A DNA stretch of 64,000 bases from Ostreococcus lucimarinus. Its lineage: Eukaryota. How positions within the stretch are numbered: position 1 is the stretch's first letter; every line of letters begins with the position of its first letter. Below, piece by piece: positions 2,946-55,542 of this stretch. The notes under the pieces are model-generated. The model did not search any database. It was not told the DNA's origin and saw only the letters and a list, made by a program, of their open reading frames with translations. Made by a program: the position numbers and the translations under genes. The stretch lies in assembly GCA_000092065.1 (NCBI GenBank), contig CP000586.1. One strand, given 5' to 3'.

Positions 2946-5258
2946 TCAGGCAAACTCCATAAGAGCTGCGGCGAGATGCGTGAGCTCCTGACCGTACGCG
3001 ACGCGAATCAGTCGCCCGACGACATCTCTTGAATATTCACCCGCCAAGGCGTGTCCTACCGCGAGCAAGAATATTCGCTCGCTCGATCTGATGGGTCTGA
3101 GGCCGAAATGTCGATTGAGCTCCGTCACCATCTCCACGTGTGAGCTGGCGATTATCGGGAAGACCTGAGACGTGCCATTCGTCTCGTTCGAAGCCTGAAA
3201 CACAAAGTGACCTTGCTCTTTTAATTGCCGAGACGCAGTACTGAGCACGGAAATCGTGACTTCGTATGTCTCGAAGTCGTCGGATCGCTCGGAGACCGCG
3301 TGCAAATCGGCGTCGTTCAAGTTCGTAATCAATTCGACGTCGATCATTTTGCGCGCCTCTCTTCGCGGGCGCGTCGCAGCCTGAAGGCGTTTCATGGGTC
3401 TACCACCCATGGCTGGACGCGTCGATCCGCTACCGACGCGCACTGTCATGTCTGATTCATTCAACCTTCTACCGATGAACGTAATGGCGCGTGCGCTCCC
3501 CACCGCGACGGCTACGGCGCTGGAGCCGACGATGCAAGGTGCGACTGCTTGAGTGCTTTGCGTCCCTACGTGCATGAATTTCAATGGACCTTGCACTCGA
3601 GCGAACGTATCTCGTTGATTCCGAGTAAAGACGTCGACTTGAGTAACGCACTCATTGGAGCTAGTCGACTGCAGTTTTTTCAAAAACATCGCGAACTCGC
3701 CGTTCGGTGTGTTAATGAGCTCGATACCTCGCAACCAAACCTCTTGCGCAGAAAAGTCGACGTCAACCGACTTGGACGGCGATGCGTTCACTTCATCGGT
3801 AAAAAGCTCCGCAAATTCGGTGAGTTGACGTTTCATAGACTCTTTCTGTCTGTTGGTTTGCTTAGGCTTGAACGCGACTCGCACGCCGTCCATGTGAGCT
3901 CTCATCTCTTGAACGCTCATGTGCAGCTCTTTGGAGATGTGTGCGACTTCTTGAACGCTTATGCCAAGCGTCGACGAACTTCGCATCTTAAATTCCGACA
4001 AGTCGCTCTTTTGGGTGTCTTTGCCGAGCAAATATTTATCCGTCGCACGACGCCAAGCTTTGAAGAGTAAACCGCGGCGCACCGCGAACGCGTCCAAACC
4101 CGTTGCTACCAAACTCAGGCTCAGTCTACCGCGTAAGTAAGCAGTAACACGCGACATCGCATTCAAGTGATACCGGAGCGCGAGCGGCGCGAGCGTCGCG
4201 ACAACCCATCCTTTGACGCTAAAGTGCATACGTATGCCGCGATATATCGGAGCGATGTTGTCCAGCCCGACATAAAACGTGGGATACAAGATAAAATTCA
4301 GGACACAGCACGCGAGCGCGGCTTTAAACCTTTCCATGGCGCTGATGAGCGCCATAGCCACGAGCGGTGGCGCGACGAGTAACGTCACAATTTGAGCCGG
4401 GTCAAAGCTGTGCCCAGAGTATTTATAACCGACGATGTTCAACGTAACCGCGGGATGACGCATCACCGACTTGACGACGTGTCGTATGAGAATACCAGCG
4501 TCTTCAAAGTCGTGCATTGGTCGACCGTGCACGTCTATACGGAAGAAACCAATCAAAATGACGTAATCGATAATGGTGGCGAGTGGCAAGTATCGCGTGT
4601 ACAGCCCCTTCAGGAACAACGATGGATCTTGAGTATCGTTGAGTGTTACGTGCGCCACTCCCTGCACGCGCACGCCTCTACACATAAGATAATTTTCGAG
4701 CGTTAACGCCACCATGAAGTAAATCCACATGTAAAACCGGCGCACGTTCAAACCGTGTCCTGGAGACATCCCTAACACGTACCACAAAATCGCGCTGGAG
4801 ACGCGTCGCACCGCGCGCTCGAAGAGGCCCGCCTTTTCGCCGCGCGGCGCTCGGTTTCGTCTTCGATTATCGCGCTCTAAATATTGCAGCACGGCAGCCG
4901 GTTTTATGAACCGTCGCGCCTCGCCCGTCGCGTCTTCCTCCGTCGATCCTCCGTCGTTCGACGACGCGTCCCCTCTTTCCTTTTGTACCCGTTCGCGTTC
5001 GCGTCGTCTGCGCGTCGTCGCGCTCCCATCTCGTTTCTTCTTCGTAGCCTTCGTCGACGACCGCGGCGACGGTGACCGCGACTTAAGCGACGTCGACGCT
5101 CGCGTCGTTCGTCTTGTCCGCATCACTCGCGCATCGTCCGTACCGTCGTCGATAACGTCACCGACGACGTTTACGCAGTCCACGTCGTCCAAGTCCGCGC
5201 CCGCCTCGCGCGGCGCCGTCCCGCGCCTGGTGCGCGACCTCGACCGCGTCGCAGGCAT
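2946..5258 (-). CDS. Multi-pass membrane protein with large C-terminal soluble domain, unknown family
   Basis: Track ORF 2946..6014 runs antisense through the MDH gene at its 5' end. The first plausible ATG outside MDH is at 5258 ([10 protein letters not shown]...). It encodes a basic low-complexity N-terminus, then about 6 hydrophobic helices ([91 protein letters not shown]), then ~400 aa of mixed-composition soluble sequence. No family motif recognised. Confidence 0.6.
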
Positions 5259-25918: not shown

Positions 25919-26727
25919 GTGGATTGAGTAAAGCTCGCGTCGTCGTGGAGAGCGACGGGTTCAAGTATAAAAAACGCAAGAGCGCGAAGGGCGCGCTGGG
26001 GGTGACTATTTCGGAGCCGCTTTGGGCGATCGAACGGGCGTCTTCGCGCGCGTTGGTGGTGGGAGCGACGACGACGTCTTCGAACGGCGCGCACATGTCG
26101 TCCGATGAAGCGCGCGGAAGGGAAGATTTCCACGAACAACTTCCAAACAACATGCCCGAAGACGAGCGCATGCAACTGCTGTGCGAGAGCGTGTGCGCGG
26201 CGGAGTGCGCGGCGGTGGTGCCGCAGTTGAAGGGCGACAACGCGTTCGCGGCGAACGCGATTAGTGACGCGTTACAAGAGTTTCAGTTGCGCGTCGAGCA
26301 GTTATTGATTGATGAGGAGGTAAAGTTTGCCGAAGGACCGCAAACCGTCGCGGCGAAGATTGACGCGCGCAAGGCGCAGTTGCGAGCGCTCCGAGACGCG
26401 CTCGAGCAAGAGTCCACGCAGTGGTCTTGCATGCTCGAAGGTTCGGCGAAAAAAGTCACCGCGGAGGTGCCCGTCATAGATACCTCCGAACTCGGTCCGA
26501 GCGAAGCCGGTTCGCTCGCCGAGGCGTGCGAAAACACCCAGCGACGGTTGCTGTTACAAACCGAAGGCGCGAGAGGCTTGGTCGAAGGCGTCGAGAGTTT
26601 GTGCGTCCGCGCCGAGCGCGCGTGTGAAGTTTTCGCGAGTGCGATCGCCGCGAACGATTTCCGTTCGCTGCCGTCGTACCAGTCACCGCACCGATTAATC
26701 TCGAGTCTCATCGGAGGCGCGAGGTAA
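25919..26727 (+). CDS. Hypothetical coiled-coil protein, main exon
   Basis: Track ORF 25924..26727 starts at a TTG. The first in-frame ATG is only at 26095. However, codons 25919-26094 (GLSKARVVVESDGFKYKKRKSAKG...) keep a strong G/C third-position bias, which argues for an upstream exon. The C-terminal half looks coiled-coil (LQEFQLRVEQLLIDEEVKF...KAQLRALRDALEQE). No family recognised. Confidence 0.55.
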
Positions 26728-26844
26728 AGCCTCGCTGTAATAAAACTGATCCTTCCTCACTCGCCGTCGTCGTGTTCGCGGCTTCATCGCGTCCTCCCGC
26801 CCTCGTCCCGTCCCTCGGTCGCTCGAAAACATCAAAGGTACGGC

Positions 26845-27837
26845 ATGGGATTCGGTCAACTCGTCACCGGCCCGCCGGGCGCGGGAAAGACGACGTACTG
26901 CGTCGGCATGAAGCACTTTTACGAGCTTCGTGGACGACGCGTGGCGATCGTCAACTTAGATCCAGCGAACGACGTGGCGCCGTACGAAGCCGCGGTATCG
27001 CTCGAAGACCTCATATCCGTCGATGAAGTGCAAGAGGAGCTCGGACTCGGGCCGAACGGGGCGATGATTTACTGCATGGAGTATTTGGAAAAGAACGCCG
27101 ACTGGTTGCGGGACGCGTTGACGCCGCTTCGGGACACGCACTACTTCATCTTCGATTGCCCGGGGCAATTGGAGTTGTTCAACGTGCACGGATCTTTCCG
27201 TAATGTGCTGCATCGAATGATGAATGAGTGGGATTATCGACTGTGCACGGTGCATTTGAGTGATTCACACCTGTGTTGCGACCCGGGCTCGTACGTCAGC
27301 GCGTTGCTCGTGACGCTCCAGTCGATGTTGCATTTAGAGACACCGCACGTGAGCGTGTTGAGCAAAATCGACATGCTGGAACAATACGGCGAGTTGGCGT
27401 TCAGCTTAGACTACTATGCGGAGGTGATGGATTTAGATTATATAGTGGAACACATCGGAAACGATCCGAAACTCGCCAAGTATAAAAAGCTCACGAGCGG
27501 GTTGTGCGAAGTCATCGAGGACTTCGGGCTCGTGCGCTTCGTACCGATGTCGATCGAAGACGAAGAAACGGTGAGCAGAGTAGCGACGTTAGTGGATAAG
27601 TCCATCGGGTATTCACTCGGCGTGCACAAAGGCGCACGTCTCGGCACGGAGGAGCTTCGCGAACGCGCCGCGCGCGGTGACGAGGACGAGGACGAAGAGG
27701 CGTTCGACATGCGCAACGCCGTCGCGAAGGCGCCAGCGATCGAATCGTACTCGCAAAACCTCGAAATTCAGGAGCGATACTTCCCCAAGAGCGACCGTAA
27801 CGACGATGGCGGATCGAAAACCCCGACCGCGGAGTAG
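26845..27837 (+). CDS. GPN2: GPN-loop GTPase 2
   Basis: ATG at 26845, 330 aa. It has the P-loop FGQLVTGPPGAGKTTYC, VAIVNLDPAN, the GPN motif LGLGPNGAMIYCMEYL, and FDCPGQLELF. The GPN2-type C-terminal region is LAFSLDYYAEVMDLDY...LVRFVPMSIEDEE. Confidence 0.9.
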   Translation: MGFGQLVTGPPGAGKTTYCVGMKHFYELRGRRVAIVNLDPANDVAPYEAAVSLEDLISVDEVQEELGLGPNGAMIYCMEYLEKNADWLRDALTPLRDTHYFIFDCPGQLELFNVHGSFRNVLHRMMNEWDYRLCTVHLSDSHLCCDPGSYVSALLVTLQSMLHLETPHVSVLSKIDMLEQYGELAFSLDYYAEVMDLDYIVEHIGNDPKLAKYKKLTSGLCEVIEDFGLVRFVPMSIEDEETVSRVATLVDKSIGYSLGVHKGARLGTEELRERAARGDEDEDEEAFDMRNAVAKAPAIESYSQNLEIQERYFPKSDRNDDGGSKTPTAE

Positions 27838-34186: not shown

Positions 34187-35098
34187 ATGGCGATGATGGA
34201 CGTCGACGACGCGCGCGCGCACCCGGCGGCGCGATTGGTGTTTGACGACGACGAGAGCGTGGAAGTTCGAACGAGCGACGTTTTGAGCGAGGATGCGAAC
34301 GCGCGCGTGCGCGTGCTCACGGCGGACGTGGAGGATGCGATGGATGTGAAGATGAGCGCGGCGAACGCGGGGAAGACGAAAATGGGCGCGGCGACGATGT
34401 TTGCGCGATTGTTCGGGACGGATGGCGAGCGAGGGAGCAAGCGGGACCGAGCGGCGTCGCCGGCGGTGAAAATGAACAGACGGAAAGCCGCCGATGGGAC
34501 GCGCACGCAAGATTTAGGGCGTTTGGCGCGAGAGTTGGCGCAACAATTGGATGAGCCGAAGGTGCGCTTGCTCGCGCGAGCGATAAACGAGCTCGGCGAG
34601 GCGCAAGTCAGAGCGTACGTGCTCGAGGCGGCGACGCAACAGCGCCACGGCGGTGAGATGACCGCGTTGGGAGACCGTCGAAGAACGACGGGAGGGATCT
34701 TTTGGGCCATCGTTCGCGCGAGAACGAAACCGGAGGTGTACGACATCATTTACGCCGAAGAACGAGAACGACAAAAGGAACGAAGCAAGGCGCGCGCTCG
34801 TGCGCGCCGCGCCGCCGCAGACGGCAAGGAAAACATTCCTCCTGTCGGTCATGCCAAGCCTACGATGGCGCAAATCTTGTTTGGAAGCATCAGAGATGAG
34901 CACTTCCCCGAAAACCGCGCGCCCTTGGCCCCGATTGTCGTTCCCATCGACGCCGTCACGCCGAAGCCGACGCTGAAAACCGTTGGATGGGCGGACGACG
35001 ACGACGACTTTGACTTCTCCGCTGGATCCGAGCTCGCGGCGCCGATGAAGACACAAAAGCCCGATTTTACGTTCGCACAAATCGCCAAGATGCGTTAG
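34187..35098 (+). CDS. PHAX: PHAX-like snRNA export adaptor (PHAX RNA-binding domain)
   Basis: ATG at 34187, 303 aa. The central segment is LARELAQQLDEPKVRLLARAINELGEAQVRAYVLEAATQQRHGGEMTALGDRRRTTGGIFWAIVRARTKPEVYDIIY. It closely follows the PHAX RNA-binding domain (LQEPKKELL..V..G.E.A..L...T...E..GG....G.RRRTPGGVF). Confidence 0.75.
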   Translation: MAMMDVDDARAHPAARLVFDDDESVEVRTSDVLSEDANARVRVLTADVEDAMDVKMSAANAGKTKMGAATMFARLFGTDGERGSKRDRAASPAVKMNRRKAADGTRTQDLGRLARELAQQLDEPKVRLLARAINELGEAQVRAYVLEAATQQRHGGEMTALGDRRRTTGGIFWAIVRARTKPEVYDIIYAEERERQKERSKARARARRAAADGKENIPPVGHAKPTMAQILFGSIRDEHFPENRAPLAPIVVPIDAVTPKPTLKTVGWADDDDDFDFSAGSELAAPMKTQKPDFTFAQIAKMR

Positions 35099-35402
35099 AC
35101 CGCCAAGACTGGCGACTGACGTCCTCGACGAGCGTTTCGCGTCGCGGCGGTCGATGTCAAACCTCGTCTCGCGTGTACTTTACATCTTTAACCCGCGTCC
35201 ACCGGTGGTGTGATCGCCGTGGAATCACCACCAGATCGACGCAATGTTTAATAACGTCACGATTCACACTCTCTGGCGCCACGTCTCGCCGCGTCGCCGC
35301 GCGCGTTCGCCCGTTCGGCGATGGTTCCAATCGACACACACGGACCTTTGAATCCGAGTCACCGACGCGCGGAATCGCGGGTTCATTCCCTCGCGCGTCA
35401 AC

Positions 35403-35438
35403 ATGTTCACCGTTCAAGCCACGCAAATCGTCACCACG
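35403..35438 (+). CDS. psaN: psaN predicted mini-exon 1 (MFTVQATQIVTT)
   Basis: ATG at 35403 opens 12 codons. They end exactly at a codon boundary on a GTGCGC donor (35439). This exon is needed because the PsaN reading frame downstream has no in-frame ATG after the stop at 35672-35674. Confidence 0.5.
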
Positions 35439-35698
35439 GTGCGCATCGACGCACGCTCTCGCGCCCGTTCGTTTCGGCGCGTCACACCGCGGCGCGCGCG
35501 CGACGCGCGCGTCGCACGACGCCGCGACGATCATCGGAGATAGCGTATCTGGACGATCCCGAACGATCGAGACCGACGCCGCGGGACGCGCGCGCGAACG
35601 GCGCGTCGCGCGACGAAGCGGCGCGAATAAATACCTCGCGATGCGCTCGCGAGGCGAACGAACGCGAAGACTGACGCGCGACGCGCTCGCGATCGCAG
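35439..35698 (+). other. Predicted psaN intron (260 nt, phase 0)
   Basis: Donor GTGCGC at 35439, ACTGAC at 35670-35675 (24 nt before the 3' end), acceptor TCGCAG ending at 35698. The grammar is the same as the PSMA6 introns. Confidence 0.5.
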
Positions 35699-36082
35699 GC
35701 TAAGGCGCCGACGACGAAGCCCGCGAAGCGCGTCCAAAAGGCGGCGTCGCTCGGCTTGGCCGCCGTCGTCGCGGTTTCGCTTCAAGTCGCCCCGGCTCGC
35801 GCCGATCTCACCTCCGATTTGCTCGCGAAGACGGAAGCGAACAAGGAGTTGAACGATAAGAAGCGCGCCGCGACGTCGAGCGCGAACTTTGAACGCTCTC
35901 GCACCGTCACGGATGGGTTTTGCAACTTTCCGCAAAACATCTTCGGGTGCGAAAACGCCGCGGAGAAGGGCGACGTCAAGTTTTTGTCCGACGATTTGAA
36001 GGTCGAGTGCGAAGGCACGGATGCCGGTAAAATCTGCGCCAGCAAGAACTCTGGTTCGTACCCGTCCTTCCTCGGTTTGTAA
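35699..36082 (+). CDS. psaN: Photosystem I subunit N (PsaN), main exon
   Basis: The mature region is DLLAKTEANKELNDKKRAATSSANFERSRTVTDGFCNFPQNIFGCENAAEKGDVKFLSDDLKVECEGTDAGKICAS. It matches plant PsaN (NKELNDKKRLATSGANFARA...CKFPENFTGCQDLAK...FISEDIALECEGKDKYKC). It is preceded by a lumenal-type signal (KRVQKAASLGLAAVVAVSLQVAPARA). The track ORF start at 35756 is a TTG. Confidence 0.85.
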   Translation, partial: AKAPTTKPAKRVQKAASLGLAAVVAVSLQVAPARADLTSDLLAKTEANKELNDKKRAATSSANFERSRTVTDGFCNFPQNIFGCENAAEKGDVKFLSDDLKVECEGTDAGKICASKNSGSYPSFLGL

Positions 36083-36386
36083 GCGTGCGAGCGCGGAGCC
36101 CAAACGCGTCGACGCGTTGTAACTAAGTCACGCAACCGGCGACCCAGAATCGGAATGAGCGAACCGACTCGCGCGTCACATCGCCGCGTCAGCACCGCGC
36201 GTCTTCGCGCGCACGCGTCTTCGCGCGCTCGCAACTCGATCGAACGCGTCTTCACGCGCGTCGCGCCACGCTCCGCGCGCGCGCGTCGCCGATTCGCGCG
36301 CGGACAACGCCGCCGCCGCCGGCTCATCGATTCGTTCGTTCATTCGTTCGCGCGCGCATCGATCCATCGCTCGCGACGCGCGTTAG

Positions 36387-36677
36387 ATGCCCAAGTACGG
36401 CGTGCACGTGAACAAGTACTACGTCCCCGACGACGTCCCGACGTGGGCGAAACTGAACGTGAAACAAGCGAGCAAGAAGATTGCGAAATCGCGAAGCCGA
36501 GAGACGAAGCAAGCGCTCGGGAAAAAAGCCAAAGCGGCGGTGAAACTGGCGAACCGTAAGGGCGGAAGAGGCAAACGAAATCCCGCGAACGCGGATTTTA
36601 AAAAGAATTTAAAGCTCGCGAAGGATTTGAAGAAGAATAAACGTAAAGGACGTCAGGCAAAAAGACCGGGGACGTAG
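36387..36677 (+). CDS. Small lysine-rich basic protein, unknown family
   Basis: ATG at 36387, 96 aa: MPKYGVHVNKYYVPDDVPTWAKLNVKQASKK... followed by a Lys/Arg-rich tail. The TAG stop lies 39 nt before the next ATG, in the same frame. Confidence 0.5.
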   Translation: MPKYGVHVNKYYVPDDVPTWAKLNVKQASKKIAKSRSRETKQALGKKAKAAVKLANRKGGRGKRNPANADFKKNLKLAKDLKKNKRKGRQAKRPGT

Positions 36678-36716
36678 GCGAACGAAGGAACGAAGGAGCG
36701 AAGGAACAAAGGAACG

Positions 36717-38450
36717 ATGGCGGCGAGACGCGAACGAGAGGGTGGCGACGGCGGTGATGATGAAATTTCCGAGACCGAGAGTGATCGTTTCATCGTAAAA
36801 GTTGCGGAGTACTTGCAAGGTGCGATCGGTGCGCACGGTTGGAGCGAGGAGACCGTTCGCGGGGCGTTTGACGAGGCGGTGAAGCACATGCCTAAAGGAA
36901 GAGCTCGAAAGGCTTTGCGAGCGGGTTTCGATGAGTACGCGGATAAATTATGTGACACAATTTACCGCAAAAATGGTCCCTCGATCGAGCGCACGAAAGA
37001 GGAGCGTAAGATTGCAAAGTTGAGCAAGGATCCGTCGAGCGCGTGGTGGGCGTTGCATCAAGAGCCGCTCGAAGATTTTGCGTCGGCGTCTTTGGAAGTA
37101 TTGTGCGTAGAGTTTGACTACTCACTCAAACGTGCATCCTTCGATATCCCCGCATACGTCCTCATGAAGGCGTTGGAGATTTCTGACATGCTGCCTGAAG
37201 ATGTAGCGACGATGGAAGAAATTCGCGAGGCGGCACTTCGTCGTCTCGTCGATATCGCGCAAGCATCCAAAGCTGCGTTTGAAAAGAAGGCAACGAAGAC
37301 GCAGGATGACTTCGTCAAGGTGAATAATCTCGTAGGTAGACTCGCGGGCGCGACGGCTATTCGTCGTAAAATGCAAGGCGCTCGTGATGAAACTGCAAAG
37401 TTGGCGGCGGAGATTGTCATGCTGAGGCACGATTTCCGTAAACTCGCCTCGCAAGACGCGAGTCTGAGTCCACCAGAGCACGAGATCGGCGTCACCGCAT
37501 CACACGATGCCGCGGTGTTATTAGGAAACTATCGTGGGGATTTAGCAGCTTTGCTCGCCGAGAGGTTGCCCGAGGACGAGAACGAGCTCGCGCGCATGTT
37601 TGGCGAAGGCGATTTGCCCATCTTTGAGTGCGCCCTCGGCCTCGGTGGTTTCGACGCCGATTTTGAGAAACGAGGCAAAAAGAATGGACTGATGTTCGGC
37701 ATGTTGGATATCGATGTGAAAGATGTGAAAGATGTCGGCAAGAACGCACCTCCGGCGCTCTTACGTCGACCACCAAAGGCAAAGTTTGATGCCAACAAAG
37801 AGGTGAACGATTACGATATGGAAGCTTTCGCTCACGCGGGGGCCGGGGTATCGACGACCAGTATTGCAGAGTCTGCATTTAATAAGTCCGACTTTATCGA
37901 TACCGACTATCTCACCGAGGCGCTGTCGCTGGTGGGTAAAGACGACGACGAACGTAGCGGACCAGGGCGAGTCAAGTTGTACTTTGCCGTCGTGCGAGTC
38001 GCTCGAGCATACATCAAGCTTTTGAACGAGGCTGGTAAACGTAAGAGGTCCTCGGCTGTGGCGCGATACATGGCAGTCGCACCTGCGCCTGAGGTGCTTC
38101 TCATGCACGTTCCGGAGTCGTCTGGAATCGATAATACAGATGCTCGCGCGATGTCCGTCGAGCTCTCCGTCGCCTCCATCAAGGCGCTGCAAAGCATCGT
38201 CAACGAATGGAACGAAATGCGTACGCTGTTCAAATCTGCGGCGCAGAGTGAAGGTGGCTTTTTCATCGATGTTAATCGTACCGCAGGAGATGCCGCGAGG
38301 TTGGCGTTTGAAGAAGGTGAGTCTGCCGAGGACGACGGCGCGGGCGTCGACGACGAAACCGAAAAAGAACTCATGGCCATGCTCGACAAGCTCGAAGGCC
38401 CGGATGCATCTAGCGACGATAGCGACGACGAGGCGAGCGATGAAGATTAG
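36717..38450 (+). CDS. Hypothetical protein (577 aa) with acidic C-terminus
   Basis: ATG at 36717. The composition is mixed and non-repetitive (FIVKVAEYLQGAIGAHGWSEETVRGAFDEAVKHMPKG..., SAWWALHQEPLEDF, VKLYFAVVRVARAYIKLLNEAGKRK). The acidic tail is DASSDDSDDEASDED. No family recognised. Confidence 0.65.
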   Translation: MAARREREGGDGGDDEISETESDRFIVKVAEYLQGAIGAHGWSEETVRGAFDEAVKHMPKGRARKALRAGFDEYADKLCDTIYRKNGPSIERTKEERKIAKLSKDPSSAWWALHQEPLEDFASASLEVLCVEFDYSLKRASFDIPAYVLMKALEISDMLPEDVATMEEIREAALRRLVDIAQASKAAFEKKATKTQDDFVKVNNLVGRLAGATAIRRKMQGARDETAKLAAEIVMLRHDFRKLASQDASLSPPEHEIGVTASHDAAVLLGNYRGDLAALLAERLPEDENELARMFGEGDLPIFECALGLGGFDADFEKRGKKNGLMFGMLDIDVKDVKDVGKNAPPALLRRPPKAKFDANKEVNDYDMEAFAHAGAGVSTTSIAESAFNKSDFIDTDYLTEALSLVGKDDDERSGPGRVKLYFAVVRVARAYIKLLNEAGKRKRSSAVARYMAVAPAPEVLLMHVPESSGIDNTDARAMSVELSVASIKALQSIVNEWNEMRTLFKSAAQSEGGFFIDVNRTAGDAARLAFEEGESAEDDGAGVDDETEKELMAMLDKLEGPDASSDDSDDEASDED

Positions 38451-38702
38451 TGAACAGTCGTTGTAGTGTATCAGTTCCGCTTCAGAGCCGCTGGAGCGGC
38501 GCCGCCTCGCAGACGGTGAAAAATACAGCCACCGACTCTAGGGATGTTGGCATTGGCGCTCTCGCGTACTTGCTCGCGCCGGAGATGACGGCTTCGCTCG
38601 CCGCCAATTTTGCGCCGACGTAAGGGAGAAGTTTGCTTGGTGTAGTGTTGCTTATTACGGACTAAGATGATATACCAGCACTTGTAGTGGAGAGTTCAGT
38701 TT

Positions 38703-39686
38703 TCATGTAACTTTTTTCCACGCCGACGTGTCAACGTGGGCGGAAACGACGAAGAATATGAAAAGGCCGATCGCGACGGGTGAAAGAGTCGGCAGCGCGC
38801 GGCACACTAACCGACGCACGCCGTGCGTATCTTTCGCACATTCGTACTTGTACCACACCAACGCGCACGCACAGAAGATTATTAAAAAGTATCTCATGTA
38901 TCGTGCCTTTTGGGCCCACGTCATCTTGCGGAAGCCGTACCTATCGAACGGCGCGACGTGATGCCACACCTCGTACGTGCAATTTTTTCGCCGAAACCGC
39001 ATCGAAATACGCTTCATCTCTCCATCATCGCCATCTTGCACCGGAAGCTCGGTGGCGCGACTCGCCACCGCGAAGTCTTTCTCGTCGCTCACGACGTGCC
39101 AAAACGAACCAAATTTCCGCGTCAATTCTTCTCTGATCGCCGACGCGCGTTCGTCGTGATCGTCATCGGCGGTGTCCGCATCGCTGAGAACTTTCAGCAC
39201 GGTATTCACGATCGCTCGTGGAATCCCATCGACGTCGCTCGTCACCGTCGCCGTCGCCGAACCTTTTCTTCGTTTCGCCGTCTCCGTCGCTTCGTCGTGT
39301 TCGTCCCGCATCGCTTGAAACGCCAACTGTTGCGTTCCATCCACCCCACTCCCGAGGCTCAGCGAATCGAACACCAACACGCGAAACTCCGGCGCTTCCT
39401 TCCCTCCCGCGCTTCCGCGCCTCCCTCGCGCGCGCGCCGTCGCGTAGGCCAACGATTTCTTCGCGAATCTCAAATTCACGTTAAAATCCCCCCTCCCCAC
39501 CACGACGTGCGTCGCCGCGTCGTCGATTCCTCGCGCGATCGCTTCCGCGATGCGTTTCATCCCTCCCGCGTCGCCCGCGACCGCGCGCGCGTCGCCCTCG
39601 CGCTCGAACGCCTCGCGCACCGCGCGCAGGATTTCAAGCCTTCGCCGCGGCGCGCAGTCGCATCGCCGCAGCGCGACGTCCGCCAT
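38703..39686 (-). CDS. Membrane-anchored protein with two dynein-light-chain (LC8)-like segments (tentative)
   Basis: The 5' part of track ORF 38703..40460 is the antisense mirror of the NOT2 gene. The plausible start is ATG 39686 (MADVALRRCD...). Two LC8-like stretches are present: MKRIAEAIARGIDDAATHVVVGRGDFNVNL, and ASAIREELTRKFGSFWHVVSDEKDFAVAS (compare [25 protein letters not shown]). Two C-terminal hydrophobic helices follow (YFLIIFCACALVWYKY, LSPVAIGLFIFFVVSAHV). Confidence 0.45.
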   Translation of the reverse strand: MADVALRRCDCAPRRRLEILRAVREAFEREGDARAVAGDAGGMKRIAEAIARGIDDAATHVVVGRGDFNVNLRFAKKSLAYATARARGRRGSAGGKEAPEFRVLVFDSLSLGSGVDGTQQLAFQAMRDEHDEATETAKRRKGSATATVTSDVDGIPRAIVNTVLKVLSDADTADDDHDERASAIREELTRKFGSFWHVVSDEKDFAVASRATELPVQDGDDGEMKRISMRFRRKNCTYEVWHHVAPFDRYGFRKMTWAQKARYMRYFLIIFCACALVWYKYECAKDTHGVRRLVCRALPTLSPVAIGLFIFFVVSAHVDTSAWKKVT

Positions 39687-40009
39687 CGCGGTCGAGTTCG
39701 CGTCGGTCGACGTCGACGTCGACGTCGCGCGTCGCCTCGCGCGCGCGCGCGCTCGCTCTCGCGTCGCGCGGTGCGGGCTCGCGCGGAATCGACGGACGGT
39801 TCGCGAACCGTGAAAGAGTCGTCCGTCGAGCGCGACGCGCGCCGCACACGGCGACGCATCGCGACGACGGCGCGCGCGACCGACGCGGCGACGACGATCG
39901 ACGCGCGGCGACGACGCGCGCGGCGACGACGCGCGACGCGACGCGACGCGCGTGAACGACGCGAAGGGAAGGAATCGACGACGGCGATCTCGCGGCGAGA
40001 ATTCATTCG

Positions 40010-40041
<32 letters not shown>

Positions 40042-40137
40042 ACGTGAGGCGCGCGCGCGACGGCTCGGGTGGTTTGAACGGCGGTGAAAGCGGCGTCGGA
40101 CGGGGCGTCGGGAGGCCGTCGCGTCGGACGGGCGGCG

Positions 40138-41718
40138 ATGCAGAGCAACGGATACGGGCCGCAGGGCACCGCGCCGCCGCCGGGACCGTACGGGCAGCAA
40201 GGAGGGCTGCCGGGGATGCCGTATAACGCGGTTCCGCGTCCGGGAGGACAGTTTGCGCAGCAACGTCCGATGCAGAACCCGCCGGGGATGCAAGGGGCGC
40301 CGGCGATGCCGCGCGGAGTGATGGGCGGGGCGGCGCGACAAGGTTCGCTGCCGCTGCCGTACGGGGGGGTTCCGGGAACGCAGCAGCAGCCGGGCATGAT
40401 GGGAACGTCCGGAGCGGGAGGACAAGGCTCGATGGCGCAGGGTGGTATGAGCGGCGTCATGGGCGGCGTGCAGCGAGGGGTTATGCTAGACCGCAGCGCG
40501 AGCCAACCCGTGCAAGGGCAAGGGGTTCCGCAGATTCAGCGCGCCGCGAGTGGGTTGCCGATGCCGAGCGCGGGCATGAGCGCGCCCAGAGCGGGAGGTG
40601 TGATGGGCTCTGGGCCGCTGCCGCGAGCGTATCCCACGATTGGGTCGCAAGGAGACGTGAACGGAATGCCGAAGATGCAAGGCGTGGGAGGATTGGACAT
40701 GGATCCGTCGGGTGGTATGATGGGCGGATTAGGCGGTTTTGGGCGAGATCAGAAAGCGCCCGGGTTTGATGATTCCGAGTTCCCGACGTTGGGCGGTGGC
40801 GGTATGCCGCAGCGAGGGCCGTCTTTCGGAAACGGGTACGGAGGCATGCCGGGCGAAGGGTACGAGGGCGTGTACGACTTTTCAAAGCCTCAGCAGGACT
40901 TTAGCATGGAGAAGGAAGATTTCCCCGCCCTCGGTGGAAAAGGGCAAGGAAATATGGGTGGACTCGTTCCTCCGCCGGGGCTGGATGCGTCGGAGGGATC
41001 GAGTCCGTCGTATCCGCCTTTGGCTCGTCAAAGTTCGAGCGGCGTGGGTTTCGGCGCGCAAGCGCCGGGACGTCAAGCGGGTGCGCCGGGTGGAATTCAC
41101 TTCGATGGCGGAGCACCGCCGCCGCCGGGTAAGCCCGGCACGGCGGTACCGGCTAGAACGAGTGGTGGGACTTCGCAGAAGGACCGATACGGCTTGCTCG
41201 GCTTGTTGCCGGTGATTCGAATGGCGAATCCAAACGTGTCCACGCTCGCCTTGGGTGCTGACTTGACCATGCTTGGTTTGAACCTCAACTCTCCGGACAG
41301 CTTGTATAAGTCCTTCTCGTTGCCCTGGAACGATTCGGCGCCAAAGAACGACATGGAACTCACTATTCCATCCGCGTATTCGCAGCAAGTGAGTCGTTGC
41401 CATCCGGCGGTGTTCGCGAAGTTCCAGCAGGAGACGCTCTTTTACATCTTCTACAGCATGCCCGGAGAAGAGTCTCAATTATTCGCCGCGGACGAGTTGG
41501 TACAGCGCGGATGGGGGTTCCACAAAGAACTCAAGGCTTGGTTGATGCGCGTGGCGAACACCGAACCGGCGAATCAAAACGAGCAGGGCGAGCGCGGCTC
41601 TTTCTGGGTGTTCGATCCCATGACGTGGGAGCGAGTGAGGAAAGACAATTTCACGCTGCAGTACGATCAGTTGGAGACGCGCCCGACGGTTCCCTTGGCC
41701 GAAAGGAGCTTGCGTTGA
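40138..41718 (+). CDS. NOT2: CCR4-NOT complex subunit 2 (NOT2/3/5 C-terminal domain)
   Basis: The track start at 40084 is a GTG. The first ATG is at 40138 (MQSNGYGPQG...). The N-terminal part is Gly/Pro/Met/Gln-rich and low-complexity. The NOT box follows: DRYGLLGLLPVIRM, LGADLTMLGLNLNS, FAKFQQETLFYIFYSMPGEESQLFAADELVQRGWGFHKELKAWL, ERGSFWVFDPMTWERV. Confidence 0.9.
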   Translation: MQSNGYGPQGTAPPPGPYGQQGGLPGMPYNAVPRPGGQFAQQRPMQNPPGMQGAPAMPRGVMGGAARQGSLPLPYGGVPGTQQQPGMMGTSGAGGQGSMAQGGMSGVMGGVQRGVMLDRSASQPVQGQGVPQIQRAASGLPMPSAGMSAPRAGGVMGSGPLPRAYPTIGSQGDVNGMPKMQGVGGLDMDPSGGMMGGLGGFGRDQKAPGFDDSEFPTLGGGGMPQRGPSFGNGYGGMPGEGYEGVYDFSKPQQDFSMEKEDFPALGGKGQGNMGGLVPPPGLDASEGSSPSYPPLARQSSSGVGFGAQAPGRQAGAPGGIHFDGGAPPPPGKPGTAVPARTSGGTSQKDRYGLLGLLPVIRMANPNVSTLALGADLTMLGLNLNSPDSLYKSFSLPWNDSAPKNDMELTIPSAYSQQVSRCHPAVFAKFQQETLFYIFYSMPGEESQLFAADELVQRGWGFHKELKAWLMRVANTEPANQNEQGERGSFWVFDPMTWERVRKDNFTLQYDQLETRPTVPLAERSLR

Positions 41719-53184: not shown

Positions 53185-55542
53185 TCAGATGTTGTCCTCG
53201 TCGCTGAGCTCATCGGCGTCGAGTTTCTCGATGGCGCCCTTGATCGAGTTCACGTCCGCGTTCGATGGACGCAAATCGAGCGCGATGCTAAAGTTAATCA
53301 TCGCTTTCTCTTGAAGCCCAAGCTTTTTGTAGATTCTTCCCATGAGAAAAAACACGCTCGCTTCCTTGGGGGCGATCTCTTGCAATTTGTTAAGCTCCGC
53401 CAACGCGGCGTCGTAATTTTCTTCGCTCATCAACACGGCGGCCATTTCGTAACGAGCCAGAGGATTCTTACCATCGAGCGCGATCGCTTGAGAGAGAAGC
53501 GATAACGCTGCATCGTTATCGTTTAGTGCATGCTTTGCCATACCGGCGTAGCAGTACAACACGCTCGACTTCGGATTGATGTTGAGCGCGTATGTGAAGT
53601 GATACTCGCTCATGACGTACTTTTCTTGGCGGTAATACACCGTACCGAGGCCGTACCAGGCGTTGTAATGTCTCGCATCTAATCTCAACGCAGCCCGATA
53701 GCAATTCATACTTTTTTCAAAGTCTTCGTTCGCAAAGTACTCGTGTCCGCTCAGCGTATGCGCGTACGTGCACTTCGGATCGAGTTGGATGGCGCGCTGA
53801 AAAAATTTCAAAGCCGTCTCGTGTTCCTTTTGTAACGAGAAACAGTTTCCGAGCACGCACCACGTTTCTGGAGCTAGACGATCGAGAGACTGAACTTCTT
53901 GTGCCAAATGTGCGAGCTTCACTTCCTCCTTCAAATGCCAAAGAACGGTTGAGTACACATCGAGACCTTCCAAGCGATACGGCGCGGCCGCGCGCGCTTC
54001 TTCAAACGCCTGCGCTGCGTTGGCGTAATCCACCATCTCTGAGTGCGCTTTCGCCATCGCGCACAGCACATAGGCGGTGTCGTATTGAGATCGCGAAAGC
54101 TGTTGAAACGAATGGATCGCTTCTTCGCATCGATACATGGCGAGATGCCTCAGACCCTCCGCGAGCGGACGCAGCTCTTTGAACGCCAACACGGCGCCCT
54201 CGGCTGTTCGCGCGGGCTGCCAACTCCAAGTACCCTGATCGCGCTGATCGCTGTAATGACCACTTTCATACGAAACTTCACCGTCTTCCGGGACTTGACT
54301 CAGGTTTGCCATCATGTCGTCGTGATCGCGATGGTCGTCGTCGGGCGATGCCCCGACGTGTTGCAGTCTCGCGGCGTGTATGCGCGAGCTCCTACGAACG
54401 GCCGTAGACGCTGGATCGTCGCTAAACAATCTACCAGAAACCTTTCTAAGTTTTCCTTCATCCATGAATTTTCGCCGCTCCCCTCCGAATAGCCCGCGAG
54501 CCGCTGTGGACGCCGGCGCGCCTGTGTCTTGAGCGCTCGGCTGTTGCGACGTGCTCTGTCGTCCCGTGCGCGGAGCGCCCGTGGTCGGTGGCGCGCGTCC
54601 TCCGATCGCCTTTTGAGGCGGCGGAGGAGCGGCGGCGGCAGAGCTCGGTGAAGGCGTCACGAAGGCGCCTCCCATGGAATCCGCAGCATCGACGCGAGGG
54701 CCTCCGCCGCCGACGGCGGGCGTTTGAAGTTCCGCGTCGTCCCATCCCTCTCCCGCGCGCGTTCGCTCGCTCGCGCCCGTGCTCGGTGGAACGCCCACGT
54801 CGTGCATGTGTACGTGTGCCGGCGTGCGCGCGAGAGCCTCGCCGTGTTCGCGACCACGCGACCTCGTCGGCGACAGCGGCGGCAATCCACCCGTTCTCGG
54901 CGCGAACGTCTCGCCGCTCGACTTTTGCGCCTCGAACGCGACGTCGTTCGACTCCAACGATGGGTACATCGCCAGAATACTCTCTTCCCGACTCTCCGAC
55001 GCGCACGCCTTCGCCTCGGCGTCGGCACCGAGCGCACACAATCCCTCGTACGCGCACCACATCAACGGATCCGCCATCAACGCGCGCGTAAACCGCGTAA
55101 TCGCCGCCGCGCGTCGCCCCGTATCCTTACAGATCATACCGAGCAGATACTCCCCCGCCGCTCCTCCCGACGCCATCGCCTCGTCCTCGCCCGCGCTCGG
55201 TCGTCGTCTCGCGCCGTACGCCCCCGCGAATCCGTCGTGGTCCGCCTCTCCGCGCAGCGCGCGCTCCGCCTCGTCCAGCTCGCCGCAATCGTAGCACGCC
55301 CTCCCGAACAGGTACCTCGCCCGCTGGCTCGTCAAACGCGTCCCGAGCACCGCGCGCGCGGCGCGCGCTTTGCCTGCCGCGTACAGGCACCGAGCGTGCA
55401 GCAGCGCGTTCGCGTCGCTGTCGCGAACCGCGCGCAGGCGTTCGCTCAAAAATATCGCGTTTTCGACGCAGTGCGCGTCGAGCGAGCGCGTCGCGGCCTC
55501 GGCGAGCGTGGCCTCGAGGGCGTCCGCGTCGACGGCGCGCAT
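53185..55542 (-). CDS. CDC27: Anaphase-promoting complex subunit 3 (CDC27), TPR protein
   Basis: The track start at 55602 is a GTG. The first ATG is at 55542 (MRAVDADALEATL...). The C-terminal TPR block is WCVLGNCFSLQKEHETALKFFQRAIQLDPKCTYAHTLSGHEYFANEDFEKSMNCYRAALRLDARHYNAWYGLGTVYYRQEKY...FFLMGRIYKKLG. This is diagnostic of CDC27. Confidence 0.9.
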   Translation of the reverse strand: MRAVDADALEATLAEAATRSLDAHCVENAIFLSERLRAVRDSDANALLHARCLYAAGKARAARAVLGTRLTSQRARYLFGRACYDCGELDEAERALRGEADHDGFAGAYGARRRPSAGEDEAMASGGAAGEYLLGMICKDTGRRAAAITRFTRALMADPLMWCAYEGLCALGADAEAKACASESREESILAMYPSLESNDVAFEAQKSSGETFAPRTGGLPPLSPTRSRGREHGEALARTPAHVHMHDVGVPPSTGASERTRAGEGWDDAELQTPAVGGGGPRVDAADSMGGAFVTPSPSSAAAAPPPPQKAIGGRAPPTTGAPRTGRQSTSQQPSAQDTGAPASTAARGLFGGERRKFMDEGKLRKVSGRLFSDDPASTAVRRSSRIHAARLQHVGASPDDDHRDHDDMMANLSQVPEDGEVSYESGHYSDQRDQGTWSWQPARTAEGAVLAFKELRPLAEGLRHLAMYRCEEAIHSFQQLSRSQYDTAYVLCAMAKAHSEMVDYANAAQAFEEARAAAPYRLEGLDVYSTVLWHLKEEVKLAHLAQEVQSLDRLAPETWCVLGNCFSLQKEHETALKFFQRAIQLDPKCTYAHTLSGHEYFANEDFEKSMNCYRAALRLDARHYNAWYGLGTVYYRQEKYVMSEYHFTYALNINPKSSVLYCYAGMAKHALNDNDAALSLLSQAIALDGKNPLARYEMAAVLMSEENYDAALAELNKLQEIAPKEASVFFLMGRIYKKLGLQEKAMINFSIALDLRPSNADVNSIKGAIEKLDADELSDEDNI

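Follow-up and report, generated by a model that had tools for sequence, protein, structure and literature searches.

A conserved pair of open reading frames in Ostreococcus and other Mamiellales as a probable leaky-scanning bicistronic locus

The stretch of DNA considered here, referred to as the window, comprises 64,000 nucleotides (nt) of Ostreococcus lucimarinus (GenBank assembly GCA_000092065.1, contig CP000586.1) and contains two closely spaced open reading frames (ORFs), a small upstream one termed ORF1 and a large downstream one termed ORF2 (Table 1). In a preliminary description of this DNA, a 96-codon ORF ending in TAG had been reported to be followed by a 577-codon ORF, and every coordinate of this arrangement was re-derived and is correct. 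Past the start of ORF1, no ATG occurs in any frame until the start codon of ORF2, and the distance of 39 nt that separates the latter from the TAG is the smallest gap between ORFs of the same strand in the window, all others being at least 116 nt in a crude ORF map. Observations from the window alone are suggestive, and the weight of the evidence for a bicistronic gene, in which both ORFs would be translated from one messenger RNA (mRNA), comes from the comparison across species.

Table 1. Features of the ORF1-ORF2 locus; positions refer to the window, lengths of proteins are in amino acids (aa).
Feature	Position	Strand	Remarks
ATG-free 5' flank of ORF1	36156..36386	+	nearest upstream ATG at 36155; presumed place of promoter, transcription start site and short 5' leader
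ORF1 start codon, weak context (ttagATGcc)	36384..36391	+	T at -3, C at +4; in-frame stop TAG 36384-36386 just before
ORF1, upstream cistron, 96 aa	36387..36677	+	TAG stop at 36675-36677; without internal Met and without out-of-frame ATG
Inter-ORF spacer, 39 nt	36678..36716	+	T-free, purine-rich, 8-nt imperfect repeat
ORF2 start codon, strong context (acgATGgc)	36714..36721	+	A at -3, G at +4
ORF2, downstream cistron, 577 aa	36717..38450	+	ATGs return 40 nt past the ORF2 start
3' region after the ORF2 stop	38451..38702	+	extends to the stop codon of the convergent gene on the minus strand; presumed place of a shared 3' untranslated region and poly(A) site

The pair was compared with 95 related loci taken from assemblies of metagenomes and sequencing runs, which represent at least 13 intronless lineages (Ostreococcus-like ones and Bathycoccus prasinos) and several Micromonas-like lineages. 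In all of these loci except those of one divergent lineage, a homologue of ORF2 directly follows ORF1 on the same strand. Conservation of both the pair and its spacing had been raised as a question in the preliminary description; adjacency is indeed kept, while spacing and relative reading frame vary. Synonymous sites differ by 39-50% between the Ostreococcus-like lineages. Due to this heavy divergence the lineages can be regarded as largely independent samples, and the repeated absence of ATGs described below is more than simple inheritance. The informative contigs were all genomic, as judged by neighbouring genes or unspliced introns, and look-ups in Logan, ENA and JGI revealed no transcript-derived contig spanning the pair among the 95 loci.

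The most distinctive property of the locus is the depletion of ATGs between the two start codons. In 37 distinct intronless sequences of ORF1 plus spacer, the first ATG in any frame past the ORF1 start is the start of ORF2, with two exceptions, namely the single-nucleotide variant L053 and the divergent lineage L046/L092. In the intronless lineages, ATGs return 28-45 nt into ORF2. L053 is a Bathycoccus-like contig in which a single G-to-T change (positions 3268-3295, GGAGGA to GGATGA) cuts ORF1 to 93 aa and creates an out-of-frame mini-ORF of 7 codons ahead of ORF2. It is the sole break of the rule among the loci with an ORF1-ORF2 pair and may represent a rare allele or a sequencing error. The Micromonas-like loci provide an internal control, as their ORF1 carries a GT..AG intron after the residues ...NLEK (L073-L087, L011). 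ATGs are present within this intron in 4 of 7 loci (two each in L073 and L084, one each in L074 and L080), whereas ORF1 exons and spacer contain none. This indicates a constraint at the level of the spliced mRNA.

The same constraint is visible in the choice of synonymous codons. When a codon for Asn, Asp, His or Tyr precedes a codon starting with G, the use of NAT would create an ATG; in such risky contexts, ORF1 uses NAC in 59 of 59 cases, compared with NAT in 65 of 127 (51%) in its safe contexts. Elsewhere, NAT is used in risky contexts in 214 of 607 cases (35%) in ORF2 and in 250 of 1136 cases (22%) in other genes of the window. Likewise, codons preceding Cys or Trp never end in A in ORF1 (0/15), in contrast to 36 of 143 in ORF2. 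The probability of finding zero ATGs ranges, per lineage, from 0.005 to 0.27 under dinucleotide shuffling and from 0.016 to 0.27 under synonymous recoding, and about 4-10 ATGs would be expected over an equal length at the ATG density of ORF2. Among sense-strand windows of 327 nt from the 25 other ORF-called genes of the window, 1.0% are free of ATGs.

The contexts of the two start codons differ in a corresponding manner. As a reference, 18 of 24 long ORFs in the window have a purine at position -3, and 12 of 24 have a G at +4. Of 19 lineage representatives, 18 have a pyrimidine at -3 of ORF1, despite a fully diverged surrounding flank, and the -3 base of ORF2 is a purine in all intronless lineages except for the one in which stop and start are fused into TAGATG.

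The spacer between the ORFs evolves in a very different way. In the window it reads GCGAACGAAGGAACGAAGGAGCGAAGGAACAAAGGAACG and consists of 18 A, 15 G and 6 C (85% purine, zero T), which confirms the purine-rich repeat of the preliminary description, as does its in-frame translation ANEGTKERRNKGT. Tandem Repeats Finder identified an 8-nt unit repeated 4.8 times at 36680-36717, with the imperfect unit GAACGAAG. The predicted fold of 36650-36780 is less stable than 200 of 200 shuffled sequences (z = +2.15), and an Rfam scan of 35500-39000 gave no match. Spacer lengths in the intronless lineages are 0, 16, 25, 31, 33, 35, 39, 42-47-52, 43, 44, 45, 55-59-65 and 57 nt, and those in the Micromonas-like lineages are 59-94 nt. 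In L033, L093 and L094 the spacer is 0 nt long, so that the ORF1 stop abuts the ORF2 start. The nearest relative of the window sequence, L016, has an ORF1 which is 98% identical, and its spacer measures 31 nt instead of 39 nt with one repeat unit fewer and a shifted frame; in one Ostreococcus-like population, (GAGGC)n spacers of 42, 47 and 52 nt were found. The spacer can be described as a microsatellite with a copy number that differs between near-identical contigs (window 36680-36717; L016, L024-L030, L035), which indicates that its length is polymorphic within populations.

Across lineages, neither sequence nor length nor frame of the spacer is conserved. The frame of ORF2 relative to ORF1 is 0, 1 or 2 depending on the lineage, and ORF1 ends in TAG, TAA or TGA. 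That the two ORFs of the window have a common frame, which had been pointed out before and is real ((36717-36387) mod 3 = 0), is therefore coincidental. The earlier argument that the spacer has no space for a terminator plus a promoter holds for the homologous spacers of 0-94 nt as well, and the spacer in the window is unstructured. Being this short and this unstructured, it is not a credible site for an internal ribosome entry site (IRES) or for a terminator and promoter. An IRES driving ORF2 was considered as a candidate and rejected, as the spacer shrinks to 0-16 nt, is unstructured, and has neither an Rfam match nor sequence conservation.

On the evidence of these comparisons, ORF1 and ORF2 are real conserved protein-coding genes, each under purifying selection at the protein level. 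ORF1 encodes a lysine/arginine-rich protein for which a database search returned 36 homologues with 60-88% identity. An exhaustive profile search of 1.84 billion proteins recovered only 26 representatives of the family, none of which has a non-Mamiellales name. Between Ostreococcus-like lineages, ORF1 differs at 37-48 of its 96 third codon positions versus 7-16 of the 96 second positions, a pattern that argues for purifying selection on the translated protein. An MMETSP transcriptome contains a sequence identical to ORF1. An AlphaFold2 model of the protein has helices at residues 19-55 and 69-87, with a predicted local distance difference test (pLDDT) score of 73.

The Micromonas-like intron in ORF1 has a bearing on annotation. 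The reference model for ORF1 in M. pusilla CCMP1545, MICPUCDRAFT_58596 (XP_003059401.1, 173 aa), is probably mis-annotated as an unspliced read-through of this intron, because its length and its cluster membership (protein P0162) fit such a read-through.

In the divergent lineage (L092, positions 596-1620, and L046), a 96-aa ORF1 homologue with G at -3 is followed by an ATG-free spacer of 233 nt and then by a gene for the epoxyqueuosine reductase QueH, which does not belong to the ORF2 family. This ORF of 167 aa, which follows ORF1 in L092, was considered as an ORF2 homologue and rejected, since it encodes QueH (Pfam E = 4e-30). The ORF1 protein consequently exists outside the pairing with ORF2. 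Ahead of QueH, the ORF1 homologue may again act as an upstream cistron, and a rather doubtful extension of this idea would make ORF1 a reusable upstream cistron.

For ORF2, 10 homologues with 60-97% identity were found in a database search, and the orthologues from Bathycoccus and Micromonas-like lineages are about 30% identical. Residues 16-32 are conserved between genera and the next in-frame Met is Met58, so that translation must begin at 36717. A profile search with the Bathycoccus and Micromonas-like sequences added one partial match of 242 aa and no distant relative. The AlphaFold2 model of ORF2 (mean pLDDT 59.5) is all-alpha in its N-terminal half and has an acidic C-terminal tail, and a Foldseek comparison of this model with the PDB returned nothing at E <= 0.001. 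For neither ORF1 nor ORF2 was there a Pfam match above the cut-off or a PDB sequence-profile match better than E = 0.3. Close relatives of both ORFs bear the names Bathycoccus prasinos (K8EVM9) and Micromonas pusilla CCMP1545 (MICPUCDRAFT_58596), and both protein families appear to be confined to Mamiellales.

Some database entries mix the two families with each other or with other proteins. A 90%-identity cluster led by the ORF2 protein P0037 (577 aa) also holds 96-aa ORF1 sequences, which points to a fused or chimeric gene model in the database that bridges ORF1 and ORF2. Another chimera is P0046, in which an ORF2 fragment is joined to WD40/NLE domains.

The conserved adjacency of the two ORFs, the depletion of ATGs, the weak context of the ORF1 start and the usually strong context of the ORF2 start together speak for one mRNA. 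With high probability, ORF1 and ORF2 lie on one bicistronic nuclear mRNA which is translated by leaky scanning. A capped mRNA would start within the 231 ATG-free nt that precede ORF1 and end past ORF2. Ribosomes would load at the cap and scan, and part of them would initiate at the ORF1 ATG in its weak context. The remaining ribosomes would bypass this ATG, cross the ATG-free stretch of 327 nt with its unstructured spacer, and begin translation at the ORF2 ATG, so that the strength of the ORF1 start context would mainly set the ratio of the two proteins. That one transcript exists and that ORF1 and ORF2 are both translated from it can be inferred from the comparative evidence. The suggestion in the preliminary description that the ORFs probably reside on one mRNA is strongly supported by this evidence, which nevertheless falls short of proof.

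Several observations weigh against this interpretation. RNA-level support is limited to the ORF1 sequence in the MMETSP transcript. The cross-lineage counts are partly pseudo-replicated, as the lineages are related. The ORF2 context in the Micromonas-like loci is mixed, as only 3 of 6 have a purine at -3 and the +4 base is C. Within the window, 25 of 747 gaps on the whole strand of this GC-rich sequence are ATG-free runs of at least 330 nt, and a codon test confined to the window (0 of 7 risky NAT against the genome background) gave p = 0.36. As ATG-free runs are not rare per strand, the single-genome test was replaced by the sense-strand, codon-choice and cross-lineage tests described above. 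Finally, overlapping independent transcripts are conceivable in genomes as compact as these, in which other tandem genes can be as little as 116 nt apart.

The last point leads to the alternative that survives best, although it is unlikely. According to this explanation, ORF1 and ORF2 are two independent, overlapping transcription units, each protein being made from its own monocistronic mRNA, with an ORF2 promoter inside or upstream of ORF1 and an ORF1 mRNA that is polyadenylated within ORF2. The high gene density is compatible with such an arrangement, given tandem gaps as small as about 116 nt and, in relatives, convergent stops as near as 64 nt. It leaves unexplained, however, why ORF1 is purged of ATGs in all frames from its exact start codon onwards, why ATGs are tolerated in the ORF1 intron and why the weak ORF1 start context is retained. 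In addition, the 0-nt spacers leave no space for the formation of a 3' end ahead of ORF2, and the T-rich signature of 3' flanks is missing behind ORF1: the 39 nt that follow the stop contain 12 T in the case of ORF2 versus 0 in the case of ORF1, the lowest count of 29 ORFs. The motif TGTAA is found at most 250 nt from the stop in just 8 of 29 ORFs in the window; with the motif being this rare near stops, its absence after ORF1 is uninformative.

It is considerably less probable still that ORF2 is reached on one bicistronic mRNA by termination and reinitiation after translation of ORF1. Short spacers and the TAGATG abutment would suit this mechanism, and a stop abutting a start occurs in viral termination-reinitiation systems. 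Elongating ribosomes ignore internal ATGs, however, and reinitiation therefore provides no reason for the depletion of ATGs or for ATG-avoiding codons, nor does it provide one for the conserved weak start of ORF1. Reinitiation in eukaryotes drops steeply once an upstream ORF exceeds about 30 codons and benefits from longer spacers, and with the 96 codons of ORF1 and spacers of 0-94 nt it is disfavoured here. It also predicts the opposite of what was found in Auxenochlorella, where a stronger Kozak sequence at ORF1 led to lower output of ORF2 (PMC11291117).

The production of one fused protein of about 687 aa, by readthrough of the TAG as proposed in the preliminary description or by removal of the stop through splicing, draws on the shared frame and the lack of an in-frame stop in the spacer of the window and is hardly tenable, given that the frame offset is 0, 1 or 2 at spacer lengths of 0-94 nt across lineages and shifts within populations via repeat changes of 5 or 8 nt, that the spacer peptide is entirely unconserved and the ORF1 stop variable, that conservation of ORF2 begins right after its own ATG, and that the junction lacks intron signals. 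Judged by these comparisons, readthrough or a fused protein is excluded as the conserved mechanism. The length of 686 aa originally given for the readthrough product should have been 687 residues when the TAG-decoded residue is counted (688 codons with the final stop). A mini-intron across the junction had already been regarded as unlikely, and the variable frame and spacer agree with this assessment, as does the position of the Micromonas-like intron, which sits within ORF1 and not at the ORF1-ORF2 junction.

Leaky-scanning bicistronic nuclear loci have been described for Chlamydomonas reinhardtii, Chromochloris zofingiensis and Auxenochlorella protothecoides (Gallaher et al. 2021, PMC7896298; Dueñas et al. 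2024, PMC11291117), so that the earlier remark on polycistronic nuclear transcripts in green algae is borne out by published work. Examples are REX1S-REX1B, TOM22 and OST4 (PMC7896298, PMC11291117). The published loci have a weak ORF1 Kozak sequence and are depleted of ATGs before ORF2 (PMC11291117, PMC7896298), and leaky scanning was demonstrated in vivo in Auxenochlorella by mutation of the ORF1 context and by added ATGs (PMC11291117). The median lengths in A. protothecoides are 291 nt for ORF1 and 40 nt for the inter-ORF region (PMC11291117); ORF1 of the present locus has exactly 291 nt and its spacer has 39 nt. Further similarities are the independent frames and separate stops, the weak ORF1 context, the depletion of ATGs, the colinearity that is kept over large evolutionary distances, and the fact that the proteins mostly have no assigned function. 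The ORF1-ORF2 locus has every sequence-level feature that defines the green-algal bicistronic family and is a probable further example of the leaky-scanning bicistrons established in other green algae.

There are also differences from the published loci. The depletion of ATGs is absolute in the present locus and statistical in the published ones, and the latter are backed by transcript or reporter data whereas the ORF1-ORF2 locus is known from sequence. The published studies reached the Mamiellophyceae via Chlamydomonas queries against O. lucimarinus and M. pusilla, and two colinear pairs have been listed for O. lucimarinus, at other coordinates and with other sizes than ORF1-ORF2. With protein families that are found only in Mamiellales, the present locus cannot be found by a strategy based on Chlamydomonas or Auxenochlorella queries. 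Full-text literature searches retrieved no bicistronic locus reported as discovered in Ostreococcus, Micromonas or Bathycoccus themselves.

Two further systems from plants are comparable. CDC26-TTM3 is presented as a bicistronic transcript of land plants and green algae in the work cited as reference 11 in PMC11291117. As far as it is portrayed there, it resembles the present locus in having a small conserved upstream ORF and a larger downstream ORF in an arrangement conserved over deep time; it differs in that the protein families are unrelated and that the evidence comes from transcripts and genetics, in contrast to sequence alone in the case of ORF1-ORF2. Conserved-peptide upstream ORFs (CPuORFs) of plants are likewise located in the 5' leader of an mRNA, ahead of its main ORF. 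They are as a rule shorter than ORF1 and regulate the main ORF in cis. ORF1, in contrast, spans 96 codons, and purifying selection acts on its protein along the full length. Together with the homologue ahead of QueH, this suggests a free-standing protein rather than a purely cis-acting regulator.

A more far-reaching and rather doubtful idea is that the locus represents a Mamiellales-specific obligate two-protein module, in which a basic helical ORF1 protein and an acidic-tailed ORF2 protein would be partners made in a ratio fixed by leaky scanning, with the hypervariable spacer tuning initiation at ORF2.

Leaky-scanning polycistrons have been shown in Chlorophyceae and Trebouxiophyceae, and for the Mamiellophyceae a few colinear pairs had been inferred by Chlamydomonas queries. 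ORF1-ORF2 adds a lineage-specific pair that was recognised from its sequence and whose evolutionary signature is unusually clean, and it provides a deeply conserved example in ecologically important picoalgae of a mechanism that is itself already established in other green algae. A simple rule derived from it could pick out bicistronic genes in algal genomes that are unannotated or come from metagenomes, namely the absence of ATGs between two conserved starts, a weak context of the first start, and a spacer of variable length and frame. In addition, the natural compact cassette, which combines a weak start with an ORF free of ATGs and about 40 nt of purine-rich spacer, is a candidate for the expression of two genes in O. 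tauri.

Two other pairs of ORFs in the window were considered as bicistrons and rejected. An ORF at 26095-26727 is followed after 117 nt by an ORF at 26845-27837, and an ATG-free run of 414 nt (26431-26845) ends exactly at the second start; the upstream ORF has 5 ATGs past its own start and the pair was rejected as a leaky-scanning bicistron. The second pair, 57059-55659 followed by an ORF at 55542, is not depleted of ATGs.

The window represents nuclear DNA of a green alga. Upstream of ORF1, it contains a PsaN gene at 35756-36082 (Pfam E = 2e-41) with a TGTAA motif 36 nt after its stop. Downstream of ORF2, a convergent ORF on the minus strand (38703-40460) has a weak match to dynein light chain. 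Gene order around the pair is kept between the window (about 34187-41718) and the contigs L001, L005 and L007, and comprises a PHAX-like gene, PsaN, ORF1, ORF2, the convergent gene with the weak dynein-light-chain match and a NOT2/3/5 gene. A (TTCG)5 microsatellite is located at 36331-36350, 37-56 nt upstream of the ORF1 start in the presumed promoter or 5' leader.

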